Shown: piece by piece, positions 12,045 through 43,272 of the stretch | Layout of the letters: each line of letters starts with the position of its first letter | Numbering within the stretch: the first letter of the stretch is position 1 | DNA from: Leptospira sp. | Lineage (GTDB): Bacteria; Spirochaetota; Leptospiria; Leptospirales; Leptospiraceae | Direction: 5' to 3' | NCBI GenBank assembly: GCA_034439575.1 | Contig: JAWXAQ010000030.1 | Coordinates: forward strand, 128,001-192,000 | Length of the DNA stretch: 64,000 nt | Notes under the pieces: generated by a model | What the model saw: the letters and a program-made list of their open reading frames with translations, nothing else | What the model was told of the DNA's origin: nothing | Database searches by the model: none | Program-made: the position numbers and the translations under genes

Positions 12045-14474
12045 CTAGCGAGTCTCATTGCCAGTTGTAAAATTCCATTTCTTTTTCCAAACTCTCTTAC
12101 CTCTACGAATGCCTTCCGATTCTACAGTATATGTTTCGTTCGGTTCTAAAGGATCTCGACTCATAATCCAAATTTCAGTTTCACCACCAATTCCATATTT
12201 TCCATCAGAAGGCTGAATCAGCCAATGTGGAATTGTTTTACCAGAACTATTTTGAAGAATTGCCTTAAAATCTTTTATGTCATAAGAGCGATCTGAATAG
12301 AATTTAATTACGATCGGATATCCCACAATTTTATCTTCGTCATCTAACGGAGTCGTGTTGGGAATTTCATTAATCATAGTTAATGGAACATTCTGTTGGT
12401 TTTCATAAGGATACACTTTTACATCAGGAGCTGTGTGCTCCATCATATTCAAATATTGGTGATTTAAACCTACGACTCGCATTACGGCTTTTTGTGATTT
12501 TTGATTTTCAGATTCCGCATATCCAAATCCCACTTTAAGTAAACCAAGGCCTGTGATTGGCCTTCGATGTAAAATAGTTTGGTTCCAAGTATCCACGGAT
12601 TCTTCACCTTTGTCGTTGTTAAATGAAATTGTTTCACCTTGATACCCATATCTAAATTCCTTTTTTGAACCTTCAATTGTATACAGGGGAAGAATGGGAT
12701 TTTGATTGTGCGCACCCAAACCCTTTGTGGTTGGATGGTTTTCATTGGCAACGAGATATCTCGCATGAGCTTCTGAAGCTAAGGTCAGACGAACGTCCAT
12801 TTCTAATGGTGGTGCTCCGTAATCAACTCTAAGTCGATTGAGTTTCTCAAATGTTTTTCGATATAATACATGTATTCTCTCCTTAGGAGGAGATAGATTC
12901 CAATAAATGATAACTGTATTTGGTAACAATTGTTTGAGTTTACTTAGAGCCTCTGGGTTTAGAGGATTTCCATCGATATGTATTGATTTTAATGATTTTA
13001 GTCCTTTCATAGATTCAGGAAAATTTGTAATCTTATTATTACGTAGACTCAAATATTCCAGACTTTTTAATTTCCCAAGTTCATCAGGAACTATGGTTAG
13101 GTGATTATCACTTAAATCCAACAAATTCAAATTGTTTAAATTTCCAATGGATTTCGGAAGGGAATTTAATTCATTACCGCCTAGAGAAAGCTCATTTAAA
13201 CTTTTAAGGCTACCAATAGTATCTGGTATTTTTTGGATTTTATTTCCAAAAAGATTTAGCAATTTTAATTTTTTTAATCCTTGGATGTCAGTTGGGATAG
13301 TTGTGAGTTGATTGAAACTCAGATCCAGTTCTTGGAGATTATTCATTTTACTGATTGTCGATGGAAGGATGGTAAGTTTATTAAATGTTAAATATAAACC
13401 TTTTAAATAAGATAAATATCCAATATTTTCGGGAAGGGATTCGATTTGATTAAAACTCAATTCCAAAACCTTCAGATTTTTTAATGCACCGATTTCTTTG
13501 GGCAATGATTTAAGCGAATTTTGTCTAAGGTGAAGTATTTCTAGTTCTGTTAGGTGTTTGATCTCGGGCGATATACTTTCTATTTTATTGTTCCATAAAT
13601 AAAAATGAGTCAGGCCTTTCAATCCTTTGATATCAGAAGGGATTTCATTAATTTGATTCGAATGCGCCCAAAGTTTTTTCAATGAGCTAAGTTCATTTAG
13701 ATCATCAAATAGCGACTCAATTTTGTTATGTGCAATATTAAGTGAACTCAATTTCTTTAAACTATTAATTACAGTTGGCCATTCTGAAAAATGGTTGTCC
13801 ATTAAATTGAGATCATTAATATTTTCTAAATTCGCAAATGAATCAGGTAATTCATTCAATTCATTGGTTTCGAAATTAAGACCTTCTAGAGATTTCAAGT
13901 TTTCAAAACTTTTTGGCAATTCCCGAATTTTATTATTAGTAGCACTCAACCATTTAAGTTGCGTTAAATATGTTATAGAGGCCGGGAAACTCTCAAATTC
14001 ATTTTCATTCAATGAAATTCCTTCCAGATTTTTCAATTGATTGATACTTTCAGGAAGGAACGTTAGACGGTTTGAAGTCAATCTAAGTTCGGAGAGATTT
14101 TTTAAGGCACCCAATTCGGAAGGTAGTTCCCTTAAACCAGAACTTATCTCCATTCGCTCAATGAAATCAAGACTTTGGATGCTAGGTGTAAGATTTTCAA
14201 AGTCACCATATAACTCAAGCCGTTTGAGGTTTTTAAGAGTTTCCCAATCCTTAGGAACATCCGTGGATTTTGTGTATATAGTAAGTCTTTCTAAGTTTTT
14301 GAACTTGGTGAGACCTTTGGGTAGCTCATCTAGATTCTTACTAAGTGATCCTAATGTTAGTCGAGACCTTTGACTTGATTCACTTTGAATTTGTTGTTCA
14401 ATTGATTGTCCCGAAATCGAAACAAAAGTGAAAAAAACTAAACTCGACGTAAGGATAAAATTTCTAAATGACAT
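12045..14474 (-). CDS. Secreted leucine-rich-repeat protein with C-terminal CAP (SCP) domain
   Basis: Signal peptide; about 20 tandem 23-aa LxxLxLxxNxLxxLP repeats; then LNRLR..APPL..LTLASEAHARYL..GETIS..W..HR..VGFG. Confidence 0.88.
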   Translation of the reverse strand: MSFRNFILTSSLVFFTFVSISGQSIEQQIQSESSQRSRLTLGSLSKNLDELPKGLTKFKNLERLTIYTKSTDVPKDWETLKNLKRLELYGDFENLTPSIQSLDFIERMEISSGLRELPSELGALKNLSELRLTSNRLTFLPESINQLKNLEGISLNENEFESFPASITYLTQLKWLSATNNKIRELPKSFENLKSLEGLNFETNELNELPDSFANLENINDLNLMDNHFSEWPTVINSLKKLSSLNIAHNKIESLFDDLNELSSLKKLWAHSNQINEIPSDIKGLKGLTHFYLWNNKIESISPEIKHLTELEILHLRQNSLKSLPKEIGALKNLKVLELSFNQIESLPENIGYLSYLKGLYLTFNKLTILPSTISKMNNLQELDLSFNQLTTIPTDIQGLKKLKLLNLFGNKIQKIPDTIGSLKSLNELSLGGNELNSLPKSIGNLNNLNLLDLSDNHLTIVPDELGKLKSLEYLSLRNNKITNFPESMKGLKSLKSIHIDGNPLNPEALSKLKQLLPNTVIIYWNLSPPKERIHVLYRKTFEKLNRLRVDYGAPPLEMDVRLTLASEAHARYLVANENHPTTKGLGAHNQNPILPLYTIEGSKKEFRYGYQGETISFNNDKGEESVDTWNQTILHRRPITGLGLLKVGFGYAESENQKSQKAVMRVVGLNHQYLNMMEHTAPDVKVYPYENQQNVPLTMINEIPNTTPLDDEDKIVGYPIVIKFYSDRSYDIKDFKAILQNSSGKTIPHWLIQPSDGKYGIGGETEIWIMSRDPLEPNETYTVESEGIRRGKRVWKKKWNFTTGNETR

Positions 14475-15108: not shown

Positions 15109-15147
15109 ATTAAAATTAGTAGGCCCCTTTGATGTGTTATATGGATG
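15109..15147 (-). other. Inverted, extended-spacer dif-like site at the distal end of the toxin cassette array
   Basis: Minus strand: CATCCATATAA, 17-nt spacer, CTAATTTTAAT. The second arm matches the arm at 22119-22129 (CTAAGTTTAAT) at 10 of 11 positions. Confidence 0.6.
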
Positions 15148-15181
15148 AAACTTTATCGAAAGAACCGATCCCGCTCTCCCT
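15131..15181. repeat. Repeat X, copy 1 (51 bp)
   Basis: 49/51 identical to 19106-19156, same orientation. Confidence 0.95.
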
Positions 15182-15208
15182 AAGACGAGGGCACTCTGTC
15201 GAGCAATA

Positions 15209-15321
15209 GCAAACCTCGTTCCCATCTCCCTTCCCTCTCACCTCCGTGTTCGAAGGAAGGACTCCGACATCCATGTCTCCGTTACCGATGGAAACAAGGT
15301 TTGCTGGCCGAAGAAAGATCG
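15209..15321. repeat. Repeat Y, copy 1 (113-bp GC-rich hairpin element)
   Basis: Near-identical to 18955-19069; ends GCAAACCTCGTTCCCATC and GATGGAAACAAGGTTTGC are imperfectly complementary. Confidence 0.95.
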
Positions 15322-15654
15322 TGTAACGATATCAATGATGGGCTCTCACATTCTGCAAAAGTATTATAAATTACGCTCTCATCCCGTTCTTTGTGGGTTC
15401 ATAACCTACTTACATCTTTTGAAACAGCCGCCTAAATAAAGATAACATTCGTTTTTCTGTGAAGTCTCTCTGCTTCTGGCGAAGGATTAGTTATGTACGA
15501 AAATCATTTCTTTTTGAAAATTAGTTCTATTCTATTTGTAAAATCGTGAACTAACTAACAATTTGTAGACTAGCAACGAACAATAAGTTTACTGTGTTGT
15601 GAAAATTTCTGTCTTAACGTACATAGCTTCTACGATTGTAGTGTTTGCGAGATT

Positions 15655-16218
15655 TCATGTTAAATTATTTAAAATCCCGATCGTAAAATTTATAATTTCA
15701 TTCCATTCTGTATCTGAAAAATTTGGAGTGTATATTAAGTTTATAGTAACTCGAAATGTTTTTTTATACTTTTTGTGGTAATAAAATGCAATCACCTTTC
15801 CCCCGATTACTTCACTTGGTCCATATAAAATTTCCATTTTTTCTGTTTTATAACGGATAAATTTTTTCCATCGATTGACGGATGTTGGTTCAAATTTAAA
15901 GTCTTTTAATTTTGATTCGGTGACAATTTCTTCAAATCTCTTTAATGAATTAGGGATTATAGATACATCAATTAACAAAGAAAAACATTCATTCTCTTGC
16001 AGGCAATCTGCTTTAAAATAAGTTATCGGATATTTTAATTCCTGTTGAACAGAATCAATTCTTTCTGTTACTTTTGGAACATAAAGTCTCATAGATTCAA
16101 CTTTTTCTTCTCTTACAGGATAAAAAGCGATGCCTCGATAACTTTTCGTTAAATCTAATTTCTGAGCATTTAGAAGAGTAAATGAAAGCAGACACAACAA
16201 AAGAACTAGTCTTATCAT
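15655..16218 (-). CDS. Small secreted hypothetical protein, candidate second or orphan immunity protein
   Basis: Sec signal MIRLVLLLCLLSFTLLNA; last gene of the cassette array; function inferred from context only. Confidence 0.55.
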   Translation of the reverse strand: MIRLVLLLCLLSFTLLNAQKLDLTKSYRGIAFYPVREEKVESMRLYVPKVTERIDSVQQELKYPITYFKADCLQENECFSLLIDVSIIPNSLKRFEEIVTESKLKDFKFEPTSVNRWKKFIRYKTEKMEILYGPSEVIGGKVIAFYYHKKYKKTFRVTINLIYTPNFSDTEWNEIINFTIGILNNLT

Positions 16219-16256
16219 TTCGTCACCTAATGATAGTTTGCATCTAATTTGAGCTA

Positions 16257-17024
16257 CTACGGCTTTTCATAACTCGTTGGATCATAAATATCTGCATCAA
16301 TTTTCCGTTTGTATTTTGTTTCATAAGCAGATACAAATTTTTCCATCTGACCCTCTGAAACTTTTTTCCATCCTTGAAACATAACCATCTTTAAAGAAGG
16401 CAGGTTCAACATACAATCTAGGCTTTTTTTAGTTAGGTTGGTCATATCATCCATGCGAAGGAAAGTAAGGTTTTTTGCATTTTCTGTGAATTTGCACATG
16501 CCTTCATCTGTGATTTTTGCACCAGGCCCAAGAATAAATCGATCTAATTTTAATACGTGCGAAAAACATTCAACATCATTGTCTAATAGAGGGACGTGGC
16601 TGTAATCTATTTTTACCTTAGGTGCTTTTAGTCCTTTTGCAATCTCACATATCTGTTTGTGGTTTAGTTCGCTTCCTCTTATAAAAAGTGTCGTTAAATT
16701 AGAATTCTTGCATGCGCTCATTTCCTGGTCACTGAAATCTGGCAAGGCACCCCAAGATATATCTAAGAAATTTAATTTCTTTATCGAACATATGGTTACA
16801 AGGTCTTCCGGTAAGTAAATTCCCTTTCCAGTCATTTCAATTGCAGGGATTTTTTCTTTCGTTGAAGCATCGAAAGTCTCCATATAATATCGATAGGACC
16901 GAGAAGTGAGATTTTTGATCAAATCTTCATCCGACAGGCTTGCAATCCGTGAAGTCGCCGTCGAACAAGCATGAAGGACGAAAGACATTAGAACGAAAGA
17001 TAATTTCTTCAAAGAGTATTTCAT
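16257..17024 (-). CDS. Lipoprotein with LRR-like repeats, candidate immunity protein for the orphan tip
   Basis: Lipobox VLHAC; repeats such as LNFLDIS, LTTLFIRG, LTFLRMDD, ITDEGM; starts 2 bp after the stop of 17027-19021. Confidence 0.7.
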   Translation of the reverse strand: MKYSLKKLSFVLMSFVLHACSTATSRIASLSDEDLIKNLTSRSYRYYMETFDASTKEKIPAIEMTGKGIYLPEDLVTICSIKKLNFLDISWGALPDFSDQEMSACKNSNLTTLFIRGSELNHKQICEIAKGLKAPKVKIDYSHVPLLDNDVECFSHVLKLDRFILGPGAKITDEGMCKFTENAKNLTFLRMDDMTNLTKKSLDCMLNLPSLKMVMFQGWKKVSEGQMEKFVSAYETKYKRKIDADIYDPTSYEKP

Positions 17025-17026
17025 TC

Positions 17027-19021
17027 TTATTTCCTTGCTATATAATCAAAATTATAGGGCGCATATGTTGCATATTTGTTTAAATCGTTCTTAGGATTCC
17101 CCAATACTGACCCACTCACATTCTCTGGATCAAATTCCGTTCCATTCACAGTTGTCGATTGTGACCCATCTACCACTGTGTAAGTATAACGTCCATCCTT
17201 CATCGGATTCCTTTGTAAACTGATTGTATGACCAGTTCCACTACCATCATCTTTCACTCGCAATGTGATCGCTAATGGTTGTTCTTTCTTTAGAAAATCA
17301 GCAATGACTTGATATCCTTCTGCGCGTGCCGAAGCAACTGAAGCAGGATTGGATCTGTCGCCTTGTGGAAGTGGCGGATGAGATTTGTCATCATTCCATC
17401 GCTGGAAAGAACCATTGCCATTCATATAGGAATTGATTACCGCGCTTGTGCCACCTTGAGGTCCATTCAATTCCATGTTCTCAGGTTTCATAAAACCATT
17501 GTCAGTAATGTCCTTGATGAACTGTGGAAAATCTGGAATGGCATCACCTAAATTTCGTTTTAACATTCCCCAGTTAGCTGCTGCTACACACCACCTCTCA
17601 CGTAAGTAATCTGGCATACTTTTAGAATCTATGCCAGCCTTTACTGCTTCGGCAGTGGCATATGAAAGAGTTTCTGGCTTTCCCCATTGTTGGAGGGAAC
17701 CTTTTGCCTGGTTCGCATAATAATTTGAGTCTTGATGAAAAACTTCCCCAATTCTAAAATTCCCAGTGGCTTCATTTACATAAACATTCAATGCTAATGG
17801 TTTCGTAGTTGCAGGGAGAACTTCGATCACTCCATTCTTTGCATTGAAGAGCTTCTTCATTGCGTCAGAGATTACACCAGGTTCTTTTTTGAGTCCACCA
17901 GATTGGATCAGATCTTCTCTTGTATTACCTACTGTTTTTATAACATCGTCCATGGATTTACCATATTTCTTTTCAAAGGATGCTTGGGCTGCTTTCATTG
18001 CATCCGATTTTTTTGTCAAATCCGCCTGCATTTCTTTAGATATAGGCATATTATTGGATACAGACTCTATGCTTTTTGAAAGAGCATTCTTAAAATCAGC
18101 TTCTGCTTTTACATATTTATGAACTGCGGATTTTACAGAAGGATCCATTTCTTGGCTTAACATCGGATTATTTAGAATGTCTATTGCCACTTCCATTCTT
18201 TGCGTTTTCGATAATGATAAATCTTGTGCTTTTTTAAATATTAAGCGCTCCGATTCTGCCTTTTTAATAGCATCCATTTCCGTTTTCGTAATTTTAATCA
18301 TTTCATTCTGAGTTATTGTTAATTCATTATTATACTTTATCAAAGTGTTACTTAGATATTGAATTAATTGGGTTTCATTTTTTGGAACGAATCCTGGATC
18401 TTTTTGATGTAAATGGTTATATTCACCAACACCTAAAACCACTCTTTCAATCTGACCTCGAACTGCCTCGATATCCAGTTTCGCTTGTGAGGCTTTATCA
18501 TTCAATTCAATGTATTTCGGATCTAATTTTAACTCAGCAATTTTATTCTTAGCCTGAGTAATTCTCTCGTTTATATTTTGTTCTTGTTCGCTAATGATGC
18601 TTGTCCTGTCTGCATGCATGTTTTCAAAAGCCATCAAAGATTTTGTCACCGTATCTTGCATTGATCCCATATAAGCCCTTGCTGTATCAGTGGAACTAAC
18701 GACTGTCCGTTTTGGTAAATCGGGAACATTGATAATTACCTGTCCGCCATTATCAACTTTTACGTATACTCCTTTCTTATCTGAAAGCGAAAGAATTTTT
18801 GATTCCTCAATCAACTTTAATCTCTCGGAATCTGGCATTGCATTGATTAAATCAATACCTTCATTAGGTGTATTCGAAAATTTTGGTTCGATCAGTATGC
18901 ATTTAGGAATCTGGCCTTCCGTATAACGTGAATTATGTTTATTACCCAGCCCAGGCAAACGCTCGTTCCCATCTCCCTTCCCTCTCACCTCCGTGTTCGA
19001 AGGAAGGACTCCGACATCCAT
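17027..19021 (-). CDS. Orphan polymorphic-toxin C-terminal cassette (coiled-coil region plus papain-like domain); real cassette content starts at the site near 18926
   Basis: No signal peptide; first ~22 codons are read through repeat Y; NKHNSRYTEGQI aligns with IKLRSYYTEDQI of the giant protein; WCVAAA..GHTISL..VVDG near the C-terminus. Confidence 0.75.
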   Translation of the reverse strand: MDVGVLPSNTEVRGKGDGNERLPGLGNKHNSRYTEGQIPKCILIEPKFSNTPNEGIDLINAMPDSERLKLIEESKILSLSDKKGVYVKVDNGGQVIINVPDLPKRTVVSSTDTARAYMGSMQDTVTKSLMAFENMHADRTSIISEQEQNINERITQAKNKIAELKLDPKYIELNDKASQAKLDIEAVRGQIERVVLGVGEYNHLHQKDPGFVPKNETQLIQYLSNTLIKYNNELTITQNEMIKITKTEMDAIKKAESERLIFKKAQDLSLSKTQRMEVAIDILNNPMLSQEMDPSVKSAVHKYVKAEADFKNALSKSIESVSNNMPISKEMQADLTKKSDAMKAAQASFEKKYGKSMDDVIKTVGNTREDLIQSGGLKKEPGVISDAMKKLFNAKNGVIEVLPATTKPLALNVYVNEATGNFRIGEVFHQDSNYYANQAKGSLQQWGKPETLSYATAEAVKAGIDSKSMPDYLRERWCVAAANWGMLKRNLGDAIPDFPQFIKDITDNGFMKPENMELNGPQGGTSAVINSYMNGNGSFQRWNDDKSHPPLPQGDRSNPASVASARAEGYQVIADFLKKEQPLAITLRVKDDGSGTGHTISLQRNPMKDGRYTYTVVDGSQSTTVNGTEFDPENVSGSVLGNPKNDLNKYATYAPYNFDYIARK
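18916..18943 (+). other. dif-like tyrosine recombinase site (11-6-11)
   Basis: CTTCCGTATAA-CGTGAA-TTATGTTTATT; resembles the XerC arm (..ATAA), 6-bp spacer and XerD arm (E. coli TTATGTTAAAT). Confidence 0.8.
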
Positions 19022-19069
19022 GTCTCCGTTACTGATGGAAACAAGGTTTGCTCAGCCGAAGAAAGATCG
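18955..19069. repeat. Repeat Y, copy 2
   Basis: Differs from 15209-15321 by two 1-nt insertions and about two substitutions; forms the inner stem between the two inverted dif-like sites. Confidence 0.95.
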
Positions 19070-19071
19070 AA

Positions 19072-19122
19072 AATAAACATCTCTTTCTTTCCGTTGGGCA
19101 CCTCGGATGTGTTATACGGATG
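19072..19122 (-). other. Inverted dif-like partner site with extended (29-nt) spacer
   Basis: AATAAACAT (19072-19080) is the reverse complement of ATGTTTATT (18935-18943); GTTATACGGA (19111-19120) is the reverse complement of TCCGTATAAC (18918-18927). Confidence 0.75.
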
Positions 19123-19156
19123 AAACTTTATCGAAAGACCCGATCCCGCTCTCCCT
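19106..19156. repeat. Repeat X, copy 2
   Basis: 49/51 identical to 15131-15181; lies just after the stop of the first immunity candidate. Confidence 0.95.
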
Positions 19157-19191
19157 CGACGGTAACGCTCGGTCGATCGGTGGTGCAAGAC

Positions 19192-19833
19192 TCATTTATT
19201 TTTTTCTTCCTTTTCTGGACCAACAATATCATAGGAAGAATTATTTTTTTGTATTTCGGCTATTTCTGCTACCGTCGTCACACATTCTTCATAAGTTGTA
19301 TAGTCAATCCCTGCTCTTCCATCGTCTAGAACTGTATCTGAATTTAAGGCATAAAACTCAAATTCGCGAAAGACAGGAGTTGGATCTTTGTAATTACCAC
19401 TGTAAATCATTTTGAATCGTAATATTTTGGTCTCGCTTTCATTGGTTAAATAAAAAAAGTCTCCTTTCTTTGACAAAAATTTCAAATGAATATCGAATTT
19501 GCGTCCAGTGGAACGAAAGCGAAACAAATTCTTATCGGGTATAAATTCACCACAAGATGTAGCATAAATAGGCCGATATTCCCAAGCATTGGAAGCTTTT
19601 TTTCGAAGATCATCCTCAATATATTTCAAAAATGTATCATCTGGGTCTAAAATAACGACTCCTACCAACTCAGGATAGTCCATCAAAGTAAACTTTGGAT
19701 CAGTATATACCTTTATATCTACTATCGAGTTAGAAACTGATTCTGTCTTAACTTTTTCGTCAACTTTTTTGCACGCAAAAGGCGGAAGACTCAAAAATAA
19801 TATTAGAATATAATAATTTAGCTTATTTGTCAT
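19192..19833 (-). CDS. Lipoprotein, candidate cognate immunity protein of the full-length toxin
   Basis: Likely start MTNKLNYYILILFLSLPPFAC (ATG 19833), overlapping the toxin stop by 11 bp; the ORF track starts at 19902. Confidence 0.72.
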   Translation of the reverse strand: MTNKLNYYILILFLSLPPFACKKVDEKVKTESVSNSIVDIKVYTDPKFTLMDYPELVGVVILDPDDTFLKYIEDDLRKKASNAWEYRPIYATSCGEFIPDKNLFRFRSTGRKFDIHLKFLSKKGDFFYLTNESETKILRFKMIYSGNYKDPTPVFREFEFYALNSDTVLDDGRAGIDYTTYEECVTTVAEIAEIQKNNSSYDIVGPEKEEKNK

Positions 19834-22800
19834 AATAAATCCCATAGACTGGGTGATCCTTGAAATTAACTGGCAGAAAATCACCGCTTTCTCTTTCTCC
19901 ATTATTGTTCATATCATACCACTTTCCATCTGTTCCTTTGATGATCAAATTGTAATGATTGCCACCTGGACGATCTTTCCTATCTGTATCTCGATAAACT
20001 TGAACAACTTCACCAGGTTTTCGATCTGCTAAAATGTTGTTTACTTCGACTGTTGTAAATGGTCTTGATACACCAACAATCCCATTGTCAGTAAAATCAA
20101 AATTTGGGGAATTATTTCCCGTTTTCGTTCCAGTAAGATCGAGCCTACTTTCAACTCGGGTTGTATAACCGGCAAGATTATTTTGATCCATAACTGGTTT
20201 AGGTGGACTAGAACTATCTGCTCCGATATCTCCTATCCTAAACTTTGTGATCAGATATTCAGAAAAACTAGCAGACGTTTTGTTGTTTGCCACTGCAAGA
20301 GTATAATTAGCATAAACTTTACATAATTCCGCTGTTGTATTCTTTGCAATCGCGTCAGTCGATGCTGCCTTGTCGCCGAATATATAATTCTTGATAAATT
20401 CGAAGTTTTTACTCCCCGATGGATCTCCTGCAAAAGTAAAATTATCTTTTCCTTGATCCCTGATCGTGGCAAATACAAGTTCCACCATTTTTGACATCCC
20501 ACCATTCTTACTCTGATTGACAATTGTTGGGTCAAGTAACTTATTCATAGCGTTGATTCTGTCTTGTCCTTCCAGAGAAGCAAAACTCCGTCCTTCCAAC
20601 TCTGGCATATTTGCTCGAAGAAACTCGTCTGGTGTTTGATTTGCTCGTTCAATTCCATCAAGTTGAGCCTTTGTCAGACCCTCCACCGTTCTCATATTTT
20701 CTGCTGTATCAGAAAGTGTTTTTTGATACGGTTCCGCGACCTCTGGAATTCTGTCGAATTGGGCCTGTAAATTAGACGAAGAAACCGATATGGGCTCACC
20801 CAATTTGACAGAGTTCAATTTTTCTAATGGTCCATTAAAAGTCTGCGTGGTCGGATCAAAAAATTTCTGATGCAAGAAAGCATTCATCTCGGTTTTCAAT
20901 TTTCCAAAGGAAGTAACCTGAGCAGAAAGTTCATCATTTCGTGTGCGTACTTCTTTAATAATTTGTTTTTCAAGCTGCTGACTTTCAAGATTCGCTTTTT
21001 TATAGTCAACCGATTGATTCTGTAAATCCTTGATCTGTCTCACTAGAGTCATTTCCTCAGGACTTGAACCTTTAATTTGTGAAAGAATCTTCACGAAATC
21101 AGAGTCTTTACTCTTAACATCCAATCTTAAAACTTGTTCTAACAATTTTGGCTTACCATTTAAAAAACCAGATATATTGTTCTCAGACGAATTGCGATTT
21201 AATAACAATTCACTGCTATTTTGCCCACCAAGTTCAAATTTAAGTGTATCAAATGCGTTCTTTGTATCAGTAAGTTTTTGAATCAGCTTTCCTTGCTTGA
21301 CCTCGCTTGGCAATGGCTTAGATAATCTCTCAATGGCGCTCTCTACATTTGATATTTTGTCTCCAAAGTTTGTTTCAAATTCTACCCTATATGCTAATGG
21401 CATAGACTCAGAAATTTTTGAAAATGTATCATGAATTTTTTCTGATGGAGTTTTATTAGGAGTCCCCAATTCCGACGAGCCAAAATACTGAATACCAAGT
21501 GTTGATCTGATGAAACCCCCACCCGAATTGTCTGTCACATAAACCACATTAGGCTCTCCTCCGAGACCAGATGTCTGCCTTACATTATCAAAAATAGCCA
21601 TATCGCTTGCGTTAGGTGTGCGTATACTTGTTTCACCTGTGATTTCATTTAAAACGACTGTTTGCAATCGACCATTTTCATCTTGTCGAATTGCTTTCAA
21701 TGAACCATCTGCTTCACGACCATAAATTATACCTGAATCAGGATCTACCCAGTATCCATCTCGATCGATACCTTCATACATTTTTCGTCTTCGTGTTTCA
21801 ATCGCATCAACAGCTACGTTATTATTTGTTGTATTGTTAGGCGCCGCATTCCCAGCCCCTCTTCCTAGTCCAACGAACGCTAACAAGGCGGCACTTGTCG
21901 TGCCTAAGATTCCCATAGTTGCATCAGCAATCCCATCAGCACTGATCATGCCATCTATATGGTTAAGTGCCAAGCTTCTATCATATTCTGACATTCTATT
22001 GATTTGGTCAGATGTATACTGTCCGCTTTCCACTATTCGATTAGTATCTATGATACGAATGGCATTCTCTCTTGCTATGGGATCCATTCCACGAATTTGG
22101 TCTTCCGTATAATATGATCTAAGTTTAATATCTGCAGCTCTCGCTCTCTCGGCATCCCCCGTCATATCTTGCGCCAAATTGATATTTTGCTCAGCCCAAT
22201 TCATCTCATCATACTGGAAGCCATCTTCTGTCATTGTCGCTAAATTTACACCATGTAACTGTAGTGAGTTCGACAATCCGTTAGTGTCAATGGTAGCATT
22301 ATAGCCAAGTCCCGTAGCACTATCTGTATAGCCTACTGTTCCGGATACTTGCCCTCTATTTGTATCATAGTTCGCTCCAAAATTCCAACCTCGTCTTGGT
22401 CCTTCATTACTTGGATTATAGTTTACCCCTACTGTAGTTGAACCGTTAGTCGTTGAAGAGCCTGTTACTTGAACTCCTTCTATTGACGTATTATAAGACG
22501 CGTTAATGGTTGTATTTCCCCTCTGAGAAAAGGATATACTCGCATTAGTCATATCACCACCGATTCCGATCATACCGCCCCAACCAGCTCGCCTATCGTA
22601 GGTAACTCCAAGACCAAGTGTCGTACCGGATAATATACCGGTTCCGCTGCTGAATGTAAAGTTCCCATTAGCAGTCATCGCTCCTAAAAATCCGTTTGCA
22701 AAGCCTGCAAGCATGCCTTGCGTTCCATTCCGACTACCATCTATCGTCTGTACGGCTCCGTTTAGAATCGCGGCCGTTAATCTAGCACTGCCAGATACAG

Positions 22801-25800
22801 CGTTCATTGTTCCTTGCAATGCAGGGCCAAATGCACCTGCCGCTCCTAATGTTACAGCTGTTGTAACGGTAGTGATCGCAGTTGACCGAACAGCTTCTGC
22901 TCTTGCTTTTTTATCAGCACGACTTTGTTCATAACGACTTACGGTATTCCTTAGAGATGCATTTAATATTTCTTTTTCATCGTCTGTCATACCGACTGAC
23001 AGTGCCTCAACGGCCATCCTTTGACCAAGTTCCTTAGTAAAACCTTTCTTGTCTTTAATGGATGGTGTAGAACTCGTATAACTAGTACCAGGTGCTTTCA
23101 TACCAGATGCTTGATTCATAAAAGCATTTCCTTGTGCCTCGAGTGTACTATCACGAGTAGTTGAGAAAAGAACGCGTGTGGAATCACTAATCATCTCTTG
23201 AATGTCCCTTTCAGGCACTCCAACTGCGACCATTGCTGTTTTCACAATACCTCCTCCTATTCCCATGACTTGAGACATTATATTCATAACCGGATTAGCA
23301 TTGATCGCTTGGCGTGTTTTTTTGGCTTTTTTTGCTCCATAATAATCAGCGATTGCATTTCCTACGACTTCGAGCGGAAGGCCGGTAGATGTTGCTACTG
23401 CTTGTGTTCCAATGGACTGTATGATTGATTGTTCATTCGCCTTAATCGCTGCTAGTTTGTCTTTAGATCGTGTACTGGCATTAATAGTTGCCTCGTATTT
23501 CTTCTCTCCGACCGCTGATTTGTACATTACTGAAGCCATAATACCTCCAGAAGAAAACATTTGTGTAAAGGCGATAGCTGGCGTTAGGATAGCACTGCCA
23601 ATATCCGCCTTCTTAATCTTCCTTTCTTGCACCTTACCTTTCATAAAACTTAGAGCTTGTGCAAGCTGTCCTATCTGGCTTTCATCGGCACCTGTAGCTC
23701 GTGCAAACGCTGTGGCGATATCCATATTGATCTTATCTTCTATCTTGCCTTTGATTGCACCCTTAACTCCCGCCATACCACCGCTAATGTAGGCAATAAT
23801 GAGATCCTTCACAAGTGAATCGTGATTTTCTTGTTCTGTTTTGGCCTTTTGGAATTTCCTTTCGTTAGCGGATTCTACAGAACGAATATCGGCCACAAGA
23901 CTTCCGACGATAGAATTGTCTTTGGCCAATTGTTTAGTATAAAAATTGTTCATCACGGCATTTGCTTGGGCACTAAAATCTTTCCAATCTGCTTGTTCCC
24001 ACACATCGAATAAATCTTTGCCAGTAGGCATAGTAACGGGCGCGACATTGGAAAGTGCTATCGTTCTAGTTTCCGATTGTCGACCACTTAAATATTTTCC
24101 AGAGGCATCTCTACCTTCAATGCGCCCATTGCTAATAACTTTAGTAAGTGTCGCAACTTTGGTTGCTGTATTAAATTTTACTTCGAAATCTTCTCGTAAT
24201 AATCTCCCCCCACCCTCGACACTTACACAATTATGTGGGTTCGCATAACAAGATCCAACTCTTTCTTTTTGTTCCTTGGTGAGTAATTTCTTATCTGCTT
24301 CGGAAAGAATATCTAATTTAATTCTATCTTCTAGATCACCATAGGATCTAACAATCATCCCATCCTGGTATTCATATCCGTCTTTTTTTAACTCATTCAG
24401 AGTCCAGCCATGAACTAAACCAAAGCAGTTAGCATCTTTGCCATGTTCTACTTTACAGGCTGCCATTTGTTTTTCATATCCCTTGGTATCTGTCAGAAGT
24501 TTCAAAGCATGATTCACTTTGGCATCACCCACAAAGTTCCCATTCTCATCAAATCGTCCCACCGCCCGATCTTCCCAGCGGATTCCAAAAGCTTGTCGAT
24601 TTAGCATTGTCCTCTGTTCGGCGATCGCATTCTCTTCGTTTTTAGAATTTACGGATAACAATTGTGAATATTGATAAACACCATTTACGGTTGTTTGCAA
24701 AATTTGAGTTATATCTTTATTACCTATATTGAGGGAAGTATTTACTGTGATTTGCGATTCTGCATTGAAAAGATTCACACCATTCACTGTTTCTGAAATC
24801 AGAGATGTTAGATTTGCAGAAAAAGATGAGGTCACACTCGCTATATCCGTATTAGTTGGAGTAGAATCCTGATATGCTGATTTTAATTTAATCTGTGCTA
24901 TATTTTGGAATTGGTTTGCATCTCTGGTACTGCGAACAGAGACAGATTGTCTCTCTAGGTTATCCCATTCGCTCTGTCCTTGGATAAACTCATCTTGGAT
25001 TTTTGATAGCCATCGCTGTTTTCTCTCATCCAATGCGGCAAGAGCCGTTTCCCTTTCCTGTGTCGCCTGCGTGCGTGTTAAATCAGCTTTAACCTTCCAT
25101 GCTGTATAAAAGTCATTATAATCTTTTACTTGTGATTCCCAAGCTGTCGCCGCTGGGATAAGGTTCATTTCATAATTATTTATCTGATTATTTAGAGAAT
25201 TTTTGATTCCATTCCAATAAGTGGTATGAGCATCTTTATTGGCATCATATACTTCGTAAGCTAGGGCAAAGGTCACATGATCCATTTGGAATGCTGTTGC
25301 AGTAGGACCTCGCAACAAAAAATAGGTCCGATAATCGAATCCATTTTGCCTATCCATATTCATATTACCTTGCTTAACCGCATTGTTATCACATGGCAAT
25401 GGGACTATACATTCCGATCCACCTTTGGCGATACCAGTCCAACCTAAATTATCTCCCACCGCATGTTTATTCGCAAAGGCAGTATCTCGGGTATAAATAT
25501 TATAATATACATTTGTTCCTGTGCGAATCGACTGATCGGAACTTAAATAACGCTGTAATAAAGCTTGTATACCTGCTTGGTTGCCAGTATGCATATAGTG
25601 AAGTAGTTCGATATGATCTCCTACTCCTAATGAATAATTAAAAGGATTATTGTTAAAATCCGCAGCTAGACCCCATGCAAATTCACTAGATATATTTTTC
25701 CAATGTTCATATCCTGCATGATTGATAGTCCCTATCATATTTAAAAGTGAGGAAGGAGCAATGCTTGTCCTATCATTAAATTTATTATAAACTTGATATA

Positions 25801-26797
25801 TTTGAGATTGATAACTCGTATAATTTGAATTTGCTGTCAATCGCTGACTCGTTAAATAAGTATTCAAATTTGTAGCAAGGGTACTTATTGAAAACGATGG
25901 TGAGATCGTAGTTGAATCCACTTCTGTTCTAATTGCATTCACCAATGCTTGTAAGGTGGCCCCTGCTGTATTGATCACACCATTATTATCACGATAGGCA
26001 CATCCGTCTGCCACCGAACATGCTGCGTTCAATTCTACTTGGAAGCCATCAATCATATCTTTAATCGCTCTTTTAACTTCCTTTTTATACTTGTCTATTT
26101 CCGTTAATTGGCTTTGGAAGTTAGTATCCGATCCATCAAGAGAGTTAATCACCTCCGCATAATTTCTTTCAATTTGATCTGCGGCTTGCGTAAAATCATA
26201 ATTCCCCTGAACATAGCGATCGCTATACACAGACTCCCATTCCGATCTCGCTTCCAACATTTGATTTTGCAAGGCAGCTTGATTAACAGTTTCATTAGTC
26301 ACATTTCCTAACAGAGAACTTTGCACGATTAGGCGATCAAAATATACTTCATTCACGCGACCAGTATTCAGCCTTGCTATAAACTCACTTTTGTTTTGTA
26401 ATAAATCTAAATTTGCATTCTGTTCCCAAACATTCAAAGCATCTTCTTTTTGTGAAAATAATGATCTCTCCACGTAATCTTTGTATGCCGCCACATCGTT
26501 AATTGCATCGCTACTAGTAATAGAATCTACATAGTCATAGATTGCATCGTCTACCGATGCTTCCCAGGCTCCTCGAATCAATCCTTGATAGTAAGTTATC
26601 TGCTCAGACCAGGTGGTTAAGGAATTCAAAAAATAACTGTGTCCATAAACTTCGCTCATTAGGTTGGGATCATATTGGCTTATATTCAAATTTAGAACTG
26701 TTGCTTGTGAAAAAATAGATTGGATAAAGAAAAAGACAATGATTACAATCGAAACGATAAAATTTTTTCTGCCAACAAACGATAATTTATCTTTCAA
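19823..26797 (-). CDS. Giant secreted polymorphic-toxin-like protein (2324 aa), resembling Leptospira TIGR04388-type large proteins; papain-like C-terminal domain
   Basis: TTG start after GAGG; Sec signal; long helical N-region; Gly/Ala-rich hydrophobic helices and amphipathic beta segment; C-terminal LCKVYA..GNHYNLI..WYD; followed by an overlapping small lipoprotein and an orphan tip. Family name from recall, not a search. Confidence 0.78.
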   Translation of the reverse strand: MKDKLSFVGRKNFIVSIVIIVFFFIQSIFSQATVLNLNISQYDPNLMSEVYGHSYFLNSLTTWSEQITYYQGLIRGAWEASVDDAIYDYVDSITSSDAINDVAAYKDYVERSLFSQKEDALNVWEQNANLDLLQNKSEFIARLNTGRVNEVYFDRLIVQSSLLGNVTNETVNQAALQNQMLEARSEWESVYSDRYVQGNYDFTQAADQIERNYAEVINSLDGSDTNFQSQLTEIDKYKKEVKRAIKDMIDGFQVELNAACSVADGCAYRDNNGVINTAGATLQALVNAIRTEVDSTTISPSFSISTLATNLNTYLTSQRLTANSNYTSYQSQIYQVYNKFNDRTSIAPSSLLNMIGTINHAGYEHWKNISSEFAWGLAADFNNNPFNYSLGVGDHIELLHYMHTGNQAGIQALLQRYLSSDQSIRTGTNVYYNIYTRDTAFANKHAVGDNLGWTGIAKGGSECIVPLPCDNNAVKQGNMNMDRQNGFDYRTYFLLRGPTATAFQMDHVTFALAYEVYDANKDAHTTYWNGIKNSLNNQINNYEMNLIPAATAWESQVKDYNDFYTAWKVKADLTRTQATQERETALAALDERKQRWLSKIQDEFIQGQSEWDNLERQSVSVRSTRDANQFQNIAQIKLKSAYQDSTPTNTDIASVTSSFSANLTSLISETVNGVNLFNAESQITVNTSLNIGNKDITQILQTTVNGVYQYSQLLSVNSKNEENAIAEQRTMLNRQAFGIRWEDRAVGRFDENGNFVGDAKVNHALKLLTDTKGYEKQMAACKVEHGKDANCFGLVHGWTLNELKKDGYEYQDGMIVRSYGDLEDRIKLDILSEADKKLLTKEQKERVGSCYANPHNCVSVEGGGRLLREDFEVKFNTATKVATLTKVISNGRIEGRDASGKYLSGRQSETRTIALSNVAPVTMPTGKDLFDVWEQADWKDFSAQANAVMNNFYTKQLAKDNSIVGSLVADIRSVESANERKFQKAKTEQENHDSLVKDLIIAYISGGMAGVKGAIKGKIEDKINMDIATAFARATGADESQIGQLAQALSFMKGKVQERKIKKADIGSAILTPAIAFTQMFSSGGIMASVMYKSAVGEKKYEATINASTRSKDKLAAIKANEQSIIQSIGTQAVATSTGLPLEVVGNAIADYYGAKKAKKTRQAINANPVMNIMSQVMGIGGGIVKTAMVAVGVPERDIQEMISDSTRVLFSTTRDSTLEAQGNAFMNQASGMKAPGTSYTSSTPSIKDKKGFTKELGQRMAVEALSVGMTDDEKEILNASLRNTVSRYEQSRADKKARAEAVRSTAITTVTTAVTLGAAGAFGPALQGTMNAVSGSARLTAAILNGAVQTIDGSRNGTQGMLAGFANGFLGAMTANGNFTFSSGTGILSGTTLGLGVTYDRRAGWGGMIGIGGDMTNASISFSQRGNTTINASYNTSIEGVQVTGSSTTNGSTTVGVNYNPSNEGPRRGWNFGANYDTNRGQVSGTVGYTDSATGLGYNATIDTNGLSNSLQLHGVNLATMTEDGFQYDEMNWAEQNINLAQDMTGDAERARAADIKLRSYYTEDQIRGMDPIARENAIRIIDTNRIVESGQYTSDQINRMSEYDRSLALNHIDGMISADGIADATMGILGTTSAALLAFVGLGRGAGNAAPNNTTNNNVAVDAIETRRRKMYEGIDRDGYWVDPDSGIIYGREADGSLKAIRQDENGRLQTVVLNEITGETSIRTPNASDMAIFDNVRQTSGLGGEPNVVYVTDNSGGGFIRSTLGIQYFGSSELGTPNKTPSEKIHDTFSKISESMPLAYRVEFETNFGDKISNVESAIERLSKPLPSEVKQGKLIQKLTDTKNAFDTLKFELGGQNSSELLLNRNSSENNISGFLNGKPKLLEQVLRLDVKSKDSDFVKILSQIKGSSPEEMTLVRQIKDLQNQSVDYKKANLESQQLEKQIIKEVRTRNDELSAQVTSFGKLKTEMNAFLHQKFFDPTTQTFNGPLEKLNSVKLGEPISVSSSNLQAQFDRIPEVAEPYQKTLSDTAENMRTVEGLTKAQLDGIERANQTPDEFLRANMPELEGRSFASLEGQDRINAMNKLLDPTIVNQSKNGGMSKMVELVFATIRDQGKDNFTFAGDPSGSKNFEFIKNYIFGDKAASTDAIAKNTTAELCKVYANYTLAVANNKTSASFSEYLITKFRIGDIGADSSSPPKPVMDQNNLAGYTTRVESRLDLTGTKTGNNSPNFDFTDNGIVGVSRPFTTVEVNNILADRKPGEVVQVYRDTDRKDRPGGNHYNLIIKGTDGKWYDMNNNGERESGDFLPVNFKDHPVYGIYYDK
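22102..22129 (+). other. dif-like recombination site embedded in frame in the giant gene (attB/attI equivalent)
   Basis: CTTCCGTATAA-TATGAT-CTAAGTTTAAT; left arm identical to 18916-18926 and in the same codon phase (Y-T-E). Confidence 0.78.
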
Positions 26798-40575: not shown

Positions 40576-41480
40576 AACGCCTAATTCTAGTTTTAAGTTT
40601 AATATCAGTTTGTATTTTTGCAAAAGGCGAAAATGACATTCGACCTGTTCATACCTATGCATTTTTGGCTTTAGAAGAAAATACTGAGTCCATAGAATTA
40701 CTACAATTTCTTAGAAATCAAATTTTTAGTTCAAAACGTGGTGAAATTGTCCATCAAACAAATCTTAGTATTGATTCTAATTTATTAAAAATGACGGATA
40801 CTGGTGTGTATGATATCAGTTTATTAAATAAAGAAACTCAAGTCTTAGGCGCTGAAAAATTAATTTTAATAAAGTCATCAAACACAATTACACAAATACA
40901 ATTGTTAGATTTAGAAACTGGTAAATTAGAATATAAAAATTCACTTCCTGAATCGATCCAAAAAACATTAATACAAGATTTTTATTCCTTCCTAGATAGA
41001 AAAAATATTTACCTTGCCATATCCGAAAAAAAATCTTCACCCTCTTCTCCTGTTAAATTTTCCTCTCTAAAATCAAAATATGTTGTTGGGGAATCCATTC
41101 GTTTTGAATTAGAAGCAAATGAAGATAACTTCATCTACGTTTTGTTAGTTCCTGAGAACAAAGGCGAAGAGCCTGTCCTTCTTTTCCCAAATCCAAATCA
41201 AACTGCAAATTATTTAAAAAAAGGGGAAAAGATTACGATTCCAGAAGGCTTAAATTCGCTTAGAACAGTTTCACCTTACGGTCGTGATAAGATTAAAGCC
41301 TTTGCATCTAAGGATGCATGGGATGAATTTCAATACAAAAATCGAAAAGGTGAATCCTTTTTCAAATTATTGCCACCAGCTCTCACTGGATCAAAATCCA
41401 TTGTCGTTACTGATCTTACTTCAAAATTAATTTCGAATACAAATGTAGCAGAATGGGAGATTCAAATTTCACCGAATTAA
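40572..41480 (+). CDS. Secreted DUF4384-domain protein
   Basis: YVVGESIRF..FIYVL..LLFPN..ITIP..PYGRDKIKAFAS. Confidence 0.8.
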   Translation: MKRLILVLSLISVCIFAKGENDIRPVHTYAFLALEENTESIELLQFLRNQIFSSKRGEIVHQTNLSIDSNLLKMTDTGVYDISLLNKETQVLGAEKLILIKSSNTITQIQLLDLETGKLEYKNSLPESIQKTLIQDFYSFLDRKNIYLAISEKKSSPSSPVKFSSLKSKYVVGESIRFELEANEDNFIYVLLVPENKGEEPVLLFPNPNQTANYLKKGEKITIPEGLNSLRTVSPYGRDKIKAFASKDAWDEFQYKNRKGESFFKLLPPALTGSKSIVVTDLTSKLISNTNVAEWEIQISPN

Positions 41481-41490
41481 ATTCATAAAA

Positions 41491-43272
41491 TTAGAAACCA
41501 AATATTTCAGTATTTGTGATATAATCAGGAACTCCCACACCAGAGAGTCCACCTAAGACCATGATTTTACCATCTGGTAAAACTAATAGTTTATGCCCTT
41601 CCCTACCCTGTTTGGTGGCATTCAGAACGAATCCATCTATTTCTTGTTTGGTCCAATTTTTTTCCACATCTGATAATACGGATGAAGAAGAAGAAACATT
41701 CCCACCTTGAATGAGAAAATTTCCATCAGGTAAAACTGCACCCGCATGATCAATTCTGCCCTTTGCCATATAATTATGCAAAGAAACTTTATTCGTAACA
41801 ACATCTAACTTTTGTATGATGTCAGTAGATAGTGATCCAGATCTACCCCCGATCAGATAATGATTCCCAGAACTATCTTTGAGTGCCACCATCATATCTT
41901 GTGCTACAATCAAATCGGGGCCAGCCGAAAAACTATCATTTGACGGATCAAAGATTTCAGTTGTTAGACCAGAACCACCCACAATCCAAAAACGTCCATC
42001 TGGTAAGGCCAAACATTGGTGGTTCATCCGAGATGTAGACATACTGGTTATAGATTGAATGGTTCCACCACCTGATCCATTCAAAGTAACAATTTCGGAA
42101 GTGGCTACCGCAGAACCCGTATTTGTTGTGCGACCACCTGTAATTAAAATTCGATTTGTAGCAATGAGGCAAGATCCATGACCTATTCTCGCACTACTAA
42201 GTGTTGGTCCATTGCCCCAAGTTCCTGTTGTCGGATTATATATATTTGTGCTATTTGTGATTGAACCCGTCAAATTCGTCGTGAATCCACCTGATAATAA
42301 AATTCTATCATCTGTTGTTTTTGATAGATTTGCAAATCGTCTTGCAATCGTTAAATTATTGTCTGCTTGAAAAGATCCCGTTACGTGGTTCCACCTTTCG
42401 ACAAAAAGTAAAGCCGCCGCACTCCCGCTAATGACACCAAGTCCTCCGATGACGAGAGTATCTCCATTTTGCAATGTCGCAATTTGAAAGTCCCTTCGTC
42501 CTCTACTCAAACTAGGTCCATCTGTCCATCCTAATATCCGATAGCTGAGAGTATTTTCTAATGGATTACCAGCTAAATCTTTTATACCAGATATTTTTAA
42601 ACTGAGACTACCGCCCTGCCTTGGATGTGTCCCTTGCCAAAAAATGCGCACAGAGGTCTCACTCAGTTTAGCAATGTTTCTAATCGTTAAACTGCCACCC
42701 GCAGAATTTGAAATTGTATAATTAGTTAATTGATCTATGCCCGTGACACTTTCATTAAAATTTAAATCAAATTGATTTGTTAAAAACACAGATATATCAT
42801 AAATTCCTGAAGGGAAGTTAGCAGTTACATTTGGTGAAAGTGTATCAATCGTAAACGAAAATTCTAGATCATCGCGAATCATTCCTTCACGATCAACTAT
42901 ACCATTCAATTTTATCTTCAGGACTCCAGCGACTAAATCTTCCTCTGATAAGATTCTAATTTGATTTTCTGCAAGATATTGGATTTTAAATCCAGATTGG
43001 GTGGCTGTGTCGAGTGATGATAATTGAGTGTAAGTAATCACATCAGAAACGCTTAAACTCGGAATTTTATAACCTAAGGGGCAGTCAATTTGAATGGAAC
43101 TCCATTCCTTTAAATAGGAATCGGATGAAGGCAAAGCCTTACATGTGTTATTTGATGCATTTGAAATATGAATCCCGAGTTCACCTAACAATAGATCGGA
43201 ATTTTTATTATTCGAATTTGGGACTTTGCAATTACAGAATATAAAAATAATCAGAAATAAAACTCTATTCAT
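41491..43272 (-). CDS. Lipoprotein with Ig-like domains and kelch beta-propeller
   Basis: IFCNC signal; FNESV..IKDLAGN; kelch repeats (LVIGG, ILLSGG, ILITGG, IMVLGG). Confidence 0.88.
   Translation of the reverse strand: MNRVLFLIIFIFCNCKVPNSNNKNSDLLLGELGIHISNASNNTCKALPSSDSYLKEWSSIQIDCPLGYKIPSLSVSDVITYTQLSSLDTATQSGFKIQYLAENQIRILSEEDLVAGVLKIKLNGIVDREGMIRDDLEFSFTIDTLSPNVTANFPSGIYDISVFLTNQFDLNFNESVTGIDQLTNYTISNSAGGSLTIRNIAKLSETSVRIFWQGTHPRQGGSLSLKISGIKDLAGNPLENTLSYRILGWTDGPSLSRGRRDFQIATLQNGDTLVIGGLGVISGSAAALLFVERWNHVTGSFQADNNLTIARRFANLSKTTDDRILLSGGFTTNLTGSITNSTNIYNPTTGTWGNGPTLSSARIGHGSCLIATNRILITGGRTTNTGSAVATSEIVTLNGSGGGTIQSITSMSTSRMNHQCLALPDGRFWIVGGSGLTTEIFDPSNDSFSAGPDLIVAQDMMVALKDSSGNHYLIGGRSGSLSTDIIQKLDVVTNKVSLHNYMAKGRIDHAGAVLPDGNFLIQGGNVSSSSSVLSDVEKNWTKQEIDGFVLNATKQGREGHKLLVLPDGKIMVLGGLSGVGVPDYITNTEIFGF

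Follow-up and report, generated by a model that had tools for sequence, protein, structure and literature searches.

A composite structured repeat with a covarying three-way junction and a Flavo-1-type hairpin in Leptospira genomes

The window analyzed here is a 64,000-nucleotide (nt) stretch of a Leptospira sp. genome (GenBank assembly GCA_034439575.1, contig JAWXAQ010000030.1, positions 128,001 to 192,000), and positions are those of the window unless a contig is named. A preliminary description had proposed that positions 18916 to 19122, an intergenic region between two minus-strand open reading frames (ORFs), fold into a single-stranded recombination substrate resembling integron attC sites and the CTX-phi attP site. 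Window positions 19189 to 18955 on the minus strand are instead one copy of a composite, multicopy, structured intergenic repeat of Leptospira. It is a new structured repeat or RNA motif, possibly with a role in CsrA binding. The explanation that we favor, with some reserve, is that this composite of a three-way junction (3WJ) and a Flavo-1-type hairpin acts as RNA and plays no attC or CTX-attP role.

On the minus strand the composite runs from a shortened Flavo-1-type hairpin through a block termed module B and a linker to a 3WJ core of about 97 nt (Table 1), and positions 18955 to 19150 correspond to one full copy of the dispersed repeat. The basal stem of the core (P1) is the inner inverted repeat of the preliminary description, which is present as an imperfect pairing of GCAAACGCTCGTTCCCATC (18955 to 18973) with GATGGAAACAAGGTTTGC (19034 to 19051). 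A covariance model built from 25 cores of this genome (R1) matched positions 18952 to 19055 on the minus strand with 110.6 bits, and a second model (R2) matched them with 90.8 bits. Conservation of the linker was judged from an alignment of 25 copies together with nhmmer profile positions. The module B block is also found upstream of cores in other species, and the short Flavo-1-type hairpin begins 3 nt past the upstream ORF's stop codon on the same strand.

Selection has kept the 3WJ able to base pair on one strand. Among the 25 aligned cores of this genome, 96.4% of the cells were paired, compared with 42 to 53% in slid controls, and 10 of the 27 pairs changed on both sides; three helices exist as alternative, mutually compensating versions that assort independently among the copies. 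A second alignment comprised 50 copies from 11 genomes (43 from relatives and 7 from this genome), aligned to the covariance model. Here 92.3% of the cells were paired, compared with 33.8 to 48.6% in slid controls, a percentage inflated by the fitting of the alignment to the model structure. In this alignment 25 of the 27 pairs changed on both sides, none of 500 shuffles reached any of the five measures, and the distinct pair types per position were numerous even though the alignment was model fitted. Cells of the G-U type outnumbered those of the A-C type (81 versus 25), which identifies one of the two strands as the one that folds. The basal stem runs uninterrupted through 11 contiguous pairs; 91.7% of its cells are paired, two positions have G-U wobbles, bulges are nowhere conserved, and 11 of 13 basal-stem pairs (helices 1 and 2) change on both sides. 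Stem sequences vary freely; the nucleotides of the junction and the loops are conserved. The covariation among homologues called for by the recombination proposal is thus found in the inner stem and the part that it encloses but not in the outer arms, which are private to this locus.

The genome that carries the window (4.1 Mb in 37 contigs, 99.98% complete) contains 31 blastn matches and 39 nhmmer profile matches to the repeat, as copies or fragments, in 16 clusters. The copies are intergenic and sometimes tandem, and many are partial. Genes were called on both sides of 26 copies: both neighbors lie on the strand of the copy in 10 cases and on the opposite strand in 6, in 6 the upstream neighbor is opposite while the downstream one shares the strand of the copy, and the reverse arrangement is found in 4. 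Five further copies have no neighboring gene on one side. An exact 19-mer of the core has 23 single matches among the GTDB representatives (a set from which this genome was possibly excluded), in unrelated taxa and in no case multicopy, and these are chance matches. Plasmid and phage collections, searched by blastn, contained nothing that matched the element. In relatives the flanking gene has a DNA identity of only 69 to 72% and the far flank is unmatched, so that insertion boundaries cannot be read there. The noncoding DNA beside three copies (window positions 15365 to 15651, contig C33:272187-272471, and C33:50705-50927) is 68 to 70% alike between loci, which indicates a longer repeated unit in a subfamily; the ORFs adjoining these extended copies show no protein similarity at an E value of ≤1e-5. 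A coding role for the repeat was considered and rejected, as ORFs that cross copies (e.g., positions 18985 to 19188, 67 amino acids [aa]) share solely 20 to 39 repeat-encoded residues and indels between copies are not multiples of three.

Of 40 other genomes of the genus, 25 gave full-length matches to model R1; blastn, by contrast, gave weak matches in 4 of 24 same-genus genomes. Model R2 found the motif in 33 of the 40 genomes and, in two other genera of the family, in 4 of 5 and 5 of 24 genomes, with no match in the 22 and 8 genomes of two more genera. Copies per carrying genome range from 1 to at least 34, a level of at least 34 being seen in three genomes, and some copies occupy orthologous positions in species pairs. 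The element is a well-supported candidate structured motif of about 100 nt, present in most genomes of one leptospiral genus and patchily in two others. The 3WJ is uncatalogued and absent from Rfam 15: the whole window gave no match at the gathering scores, and no match to the core was obtained from positions 18700 to 19400 at an E value of ≤10 or from 20 loci of relatives at an E value of ≤1. Weak matches to sn2991, mir-150, and S4-Bacteroidia within positions 18700 to 19400 are unrelated and were taken as chance; the sn2991 match (19262 to 19333, minus strand) concerns a eukaryotic snoRNA family, falls within the 236-aa ORF, and reached 28 bits where the gathering score is 60. No description of the element was found in the literature on Leptospira repeats, palindromes or stem-loops, integrons or attC, transposable elements of the miniature inverted-repeat type (MITEs), Flavo-1, or CsrA. 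A different structured direct repeat of 118 nt, GC rich and 86% identical between its copies, flanks the orthologous recombinase gene (see below) of genome G050 on contig C3 (locus L083, 15922 to 16039 and 18215 to 18332), and it seems that more than one family of structured repeats of this sort, indeed several, is present in Leptospira genomes.

The 5′ part of the composite links the new motif to an older one. The Flavo-1 RNA motif (RF01705) was described by Weinberg et al. in 2010 as a structured element of unexplained function (PMC2864571). The present genome contains 33 Flavo-1 matches, 23 of them over the Rfam cutoff of 42 bits. By comparison of coordinates, 6 of 31 cores in this genome are preceded on their 5′ side, at 71 to 86 nt and on the same strand, by a Flavo-1 element, and the same arrangement, with Flavo-1 scoring over the cutoff, is seen at 4 of 20 loci of relatives. 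Positions 19135 to 19189 align as a short form with the outer halves of four Rfam-positive Flavo-1 copies. The absence of the distal helix from this part explains why RF01705 has no match in the window, even at an E value of ≤10 over positions 18700 to 19400. Both the 3WJ repeat and Flavo-1 are GC rich, multicopy, structured, and intergenic, whereas the 3WJ core forms a domain apart, with a fold that is matched by neither RF01705 nor any other Rfam model. Flavo-1 has been an orphan since 2010, and, given the physical coupling, explaining one of the two motifs may explain the other. Many Flavo-1 matches in this spirochete lie far from any 3WJ core.

The conserved nucleotides of the core suggest what such an RNA might do. 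GGA is found in the P3b loop of 48 and in the P2 loop of 45 of the 50 aligned copies, the two junction strands carry G(G/A)A in 45 and 43 copies, and GAG closes the junction in 49. In the R2 consensus the two loops read CAaGGAUG and CAcGGAuG. The Escherichia coli CsrA consensus is RUACARGGAUGU, with the GGA placed within a hairpin loop, and CsrA of Leptospira biflexa binds a hexaloop in a GGA-dependent manner (PMC8668096). The same source also states that Leptospira has CsrA but lacks homologues of csrB and csrC, and it puts forward FliW as the probable antagonist of CsrA; a single uncharacterized "CsrA-like ncRNA" of L. biflexa, which may be relevant here, was predicted by Iraola et al. (PMC4863578). 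The genome studied here has one csrA gene.

According to the favored explanation, the element would act as a single-stranded nucleic acid, most probably as RNA read through from neighboring genes, and the position of the composite 3 nt after a same-strand stop codon makes read-through transcription plausible at this locus. The two hairpin loops (CA-N-GGA-U-G) and the two single-stranded G(G/A)AG stretches would then be presented to a GGA-recognizing protein, for which CsrA is the best candidate, and the element may persist and multiply in the manner of repeats of the repetitive extragenic palindrome (REP) or bacterial interspersed mosaic element (BIME) type. A role in CsrA binding, suggested by the loop motifs, would make the element a dispersed RNA module in a lineage that is said to have no CsrB-type RNAs; taken on its own, this role is less likely than not and more likely than one in recombination. 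Like CsrB, RsmY, and RsmZ, the element exposes several GGA motifs, in hairpin loops as well as in single-stranded stretches, and two of its loops match the core of the CsrA consensus. Those sponges, unlike the 3WJ element, are genes in single or few copies, each having its own promoter and terminator and no conserved three-way junction, whereas the 3WJ element is a dispersed repeat of up to at least 34 copies with no recognizable promoter or terminator. Two loops resemble high-affinity CsrA sites, and if they are bound, a new layer of posttranscriptional control in spirochetes could open.

Several points, in addition to the inflated pairing percentage of the fitted alignment, weigh against an RNA role of this kind. 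The orientation of genes relative to the copies is mixed, so that at least six copies would need their own promoter or antisense transcription, and in the largest array of the genome, on contig C11, the strand that folds runs antisense to the cassette ORFs. The minus strand around the window element yielded no promoter- or terminator-like site. Folded single-stranded DNA (ssDNA) also tolerates G-T wobbles, and the strand asymmetry therefore cannot separate RNA from ssDNA. The link to CsrA is one of motif resemblance, and loops of the GGAGG type resemble Shine-Dalgarno sequences too. A model confined to RNA explains neither the same-orientation bias of neighboring copies (36 of 44 pairs among the matches listed) nor the proximity of a tyrosine recombinase in 5 of the 18 genomes that have this recombinase, and no Y1 transposase, reverse transcriptase, or TnpB domain was found in this genome as a means of copying.

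A related explanation, that the entire Flavo-1, module B, and 3WJ unit of about 240 to 280 nt represents a family of small-RNA genes, each independent and equipped with a promoter and a terminator, would account for the constant order and strand of the three modules across species and for the strong covariation. Flavo-1 regions are, moreover, among the unannotated transcribed regions reported from Leptospira long-read transcriptomes (bioRxiv 10.1101/2023.03.29.534852). We nevertheless regard independent genes as quite unlikely, as the element strand in the window has no promoter- or terminator-like signal and many copies are partial or tandem. In Flavobacterium, too, Flavo-1 matches lie sense, antisense, or outside transcribed regions (PMC9723704).

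The inverted repeats that gave rise to the recombination proposal do exist. The outer one pairs TCCGTATAAC (18918 to 18927) with GTTATACGGA (19111 to 19120) over 10 nt at 100%, and the second pairs ATGTTTATT (18935 to 18943) with AATAAACAT (19072 to 19080) over 9 nt, also at 100%; the unpaired center between them, given earlier as 6 versus 29 nt, recounts to 7 nt (18928 to 18934) versus 30 nt (19081 to 19110). Minimum-energy DNA folds of positions 18905 to 19130 join all of the arms on both strands, in agreement with the claim that they pair in a single-strand fold. The plus-strand fold is ordinary (−26.7 kcal/mol; z score, −1.59; 16 of 200 shuffles equally good), and the minus-strand fold is better (−33.3 kcal/mol; z score, −2.72; 2 of 200 shuffles equally good). 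As RNA, the minus strand over 301 nt has a z score of −3.22, which none of 100 shuffles equaled. In dinucleotide shuffles of positions 18903 to 19191, a perfect 10-nt inverted repeat arose in 66 of 2,000 sequences and two nested 9-nt inverted repeats, both perfect, arose in 4 of 2,000, so that the pattern as a whole exceeds chance.

The left arms nonetheless lie outside the repeat unit, as the left boundary of the family falls at 18955, and positions 18903 to 18950 have no further match anywhere in this genome. The right-hand C′ arm GTTATACGGA is part of the invariant block of module B, and the D′ arm AATAAACAT lies in the variable AT-rich linker. The supposed pairing of outer recombinase arms has no counterpart in other copies: when the left flank was compared with the right-hand modules in 26 near-complete copies, 23 had no inverted repeat above chance. 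The window copy is the only one with a 10-nt flank-to-flank inverted repeat rarely reached by shuffles (1 of 200); on contig C35, flank-to-flank inverted repeats of 9 to 10 nt occur in two copies and are AT rich. The outer left arms are best read as a private local inverted duplication, namely, an internally deleted inverted copy of module B and the linker. That the nested repeats in their entirety reflect chance or a meaningless local duplication without function would fit the uniqueness of the left arms to this locus and the nonsignificant plus-strand fold, yet it is scarcely credible in view of the rarity of nested perfect repeats in shuffles, and for the inner stem, a member of a covarying family, it is refuted.

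Two further explanations tie the element to the movement of DNA. In one of them, the folded element would be a structure-defined, single-strand recombination site analogous to attC or CTX-phi attP, used by a XerA/IntI-like or host Xer recombinase, with pairs in the same orientation, including the two cores of the window, bracketing mobile cassettes. In favor of this, the elements are set by structure and not by sequence, and they fold in a strand-specific way. Among the matches listed for eight genomes, 36 of 44 neighboring pairs within 20 kb share an orientation, and an array of six co-oriented elements on contig C11 starts 3 nt after the stop codon of a tyrosine recombinase gene. The spacers of this array, the largest of the genome, measure 0.3 to 1.5 kb and contain short ORFs that include two PIN toxins and unknown ORFs. 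The C11 recombinase is one of five tyrosine recombinases in the genome and has a PF13495 N-terminal domain. It scores 231.3 against a cutoff of 220 for NF040815 ("XerA/integron integrase") and 162.2, in two stretches, against a cutoff of 265 for TIGR02249. Its best solved relatives are archaeal XerA proteins, and IntI4 also matches in two stretches, consistent with a missing IntI-specific insert. The recombinase beside the array is thus XerA-like and not IntI, the other four not having been inspected for the insert. Orthologues with 51 to 59% identity occur in 17 of the 40 genus genomes. In G045, G016, G050, and G003, three of which have few copies among the matches listed, the distance between elements and the orthologous gene is 105 nt to 3.1 kb. 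Against this, the recombinase was not found at an E value of ≤1e-40 in G004, G044, and G049, the genomes richest in copies; 19 of 21 recombinase loci searched have no element nearby, and 12 relatives have no repeat array downstream of the orthologous gene. The Leptospira phage record KF114878.1, which encodes a homologue of the recombinase (56% identity), lacks the element as well (best covariance-model E value, 0.055). A duplicated PIN toxin-antitoxin block, the sole such block found, is 84.6% identical over 690 nt and inverted relative to its two neighboring elements, and the duplication stops 172 and 302 nt short of the two cores.

The architecture of the element is likewise only partly that of a recombination substrate. 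Like integron attC sites, the 3WJ elements have a strand-specific fold of the structure-recognized kind, lie between short accessory-gene cassettes (toxin-antitoxin genes among them), and form arrays in the same orientation, one of which adjoins a tyrosine recombinase. Alongside these co-oriented arrays there are tandems without cassettes, solitary copies, ORFs in both orientations, and many copies in genomes that lack the recombinase. In contrast to attC, the family has no IntI, conserved AAC/GTT core, extrahelical bases, or unpaired central spacer, and its conserved bases lie in the distal loops and the junction, where attC is most variable, the stem having no invariant core. Copies in this genome read GCAAAC...GTTTGC, in which AAC/GTT is present but the attC core RYYYAAC/GTTRRRY is not matched, and no base-of-stem column is invariant across species. 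Nor could a second C-spacer-D motif be recovered: the 25-mer has no other copy with fewer than three mismatches in the window or the genome, and its one three-mismatch match in the window lies inside a 2,324-aa ORF. The resemblance to CTX-phi attP(+) and integrative mobile elements exploiting Xer (IMEX) is that two inverted two-part motifs pair around an asymmetric bubble at this one locus; the arms are not conserved in other copies, and a freely varying stem misfits sequence-specific XerC/XerD arms. No phage genes were recognized by Pfam in the ORF block between the two cores of the window. Of the proposed attC- or CTX-attP-like substrate there remain the strand-specific covarying fold and the same-orientation pairs around accessory genes, and the IntI, the core, the extrahelical bases, and the conserved arms are missing, so that the element is improbable as a recombination site. 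Spirochete integrons are reported for Treponema only (PMC3607928); if recombination were the true role, it would mean an integron-like cassette system without an IntI integrase in Leptospira. With co-oriented clustering around toxin-antitoxin and other accessory genes, and with a Xer-like recombinase linked to part of the copies, a novel type of cassette system retains a small chance.

The other mobile-DNA explanation, a nonautonomous transposable element of the MITE or REP type whose basal stem would serve as terminal inverted repeats for a transposase acting in trans, with an incidental inner fold, is somewhat less remote but still unlikely. The repeat is multicopy, intergenic, and clustered, its copy number varies between species from 0 to at least 34, and its sequence families are species specific and almost invisible to blastn across species. 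The sequence of the terminal stem is not conserved, however, and pairing alone is kept, which is the opposite of what a sequence-specific transposase requires, and the internal helices covary too. Aligned flanks show no target-site duplication, the conserved unit is asymmetric, with the core, tail, and module B on one side only, and some copies have been kept at orthologous sites. Neither Y1/RAYT nor TnpB nor reverse transcriptase was found in the genome (RAYT family PF01797, 0 matches), and no copy encloses a transposase, one YhgA-like gene lying beside a copy. The enterobacterial and pseudomonad REP and BIME families are similar in being intergenic, clustered, and species specific and in forming modular mosaics of folded repeats that are sometimes tandem. 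REPs are simple palindromes of 20 to 40 nt tied to RAYT (Y1) transposases, unlike the 3WJ element, a three-way junction of about 100 nt with covarying stems and conserved loops in a genome without RAYT. BIMEs alternate in orientation (PMC2817692), whereas neighboring 3WJ copies are mostly direct. A composite structured repeat that probably acts as RNA therefore remains the reading that we prefer to a recombination site or a transposable element.

Table 1. Coordinates of the composite repeat and neighboring features in the window
Feature	Positions	Strand	Description
3WJ core	18955..19051	−	Basal stem P1, hairpin P2, and bipartite hairpin P3a/P3b; both terminal loops carry GGA
Linker, 5′ of the core on the minus strand	19052..19092	−	About 19052-19075 conserved, remainder AT rich and variable; contains AATAAACAT (19072-19080)
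Module B	19093..19134	−	Reads CATCC(G/A)TATAACACATCCGAGGTGCCC on the minus strand; contains GTTATACGGA (19111-19120); invariant alignment columns
Short Flavo-1-type hairpin	19135..19189	−	Outer halves align with bona fide Flavo-1; distal helix replaced by a short hairpin
Private left arms	18918..18943	+	TCCGTATAAC (18918-18927) and ATGTTTATT (18935-18943); not in the repeat family
Second 3WJ core	15205..15308	−	Same orientation, 3.6 kb away; 124.5 bits with R1, 102.4 bits with R2
Three ORFs between the two cores	15655..18838	−	187 aa, 255 aa, and about 603 aa; no Pfam family
236-aa ORF	19192..19902	−	Stop at 19192, directly before the composite element; no Pfam family

The second core of the window is adjoined by a partial module fragment (15118 to 15175, nhmmer matches). 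The first in-frame ATG of the downstream minus-strand ORF (603 or 664 aa) that lies outside the repeat is at 18838, and it is the most likely start because the longer ORF, which reads from 19021, crosses the repeat. A Pfam search of the flanking ORFs (2,324, 236, 603/664, 255, and 187 aa) returned no family. The 2,324-aa ORF (19823 to 26797, minus strand), which precedes the 236-aa ORF, has no Pfam family at an E value of ≤0.01; a gene with RHS repeats and of similar size is present in the Leptospira phage record that carries the homologue of the C11 recombinase. On contig C11 the recombinase-linked array spans 40691 to 46642, and the contig ends 576 nt later; its length of 47,218 bp is near that of the phage record KF114878.1 (47,417 bp). 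A YhgA-like gene (Transposase_31, PF04754) at C35:33675-34628 overlaps the end of a 3WJ element by a few nucleotides and sits in a cluster of five co-oriented 3WJ copies. Elsewhere in the window, an 809-aa protein encoded at positions 12045 to 14474 on the minus strand has leucine-rich repeats together with a CAP (cysteine-rich secretory protein) domain.

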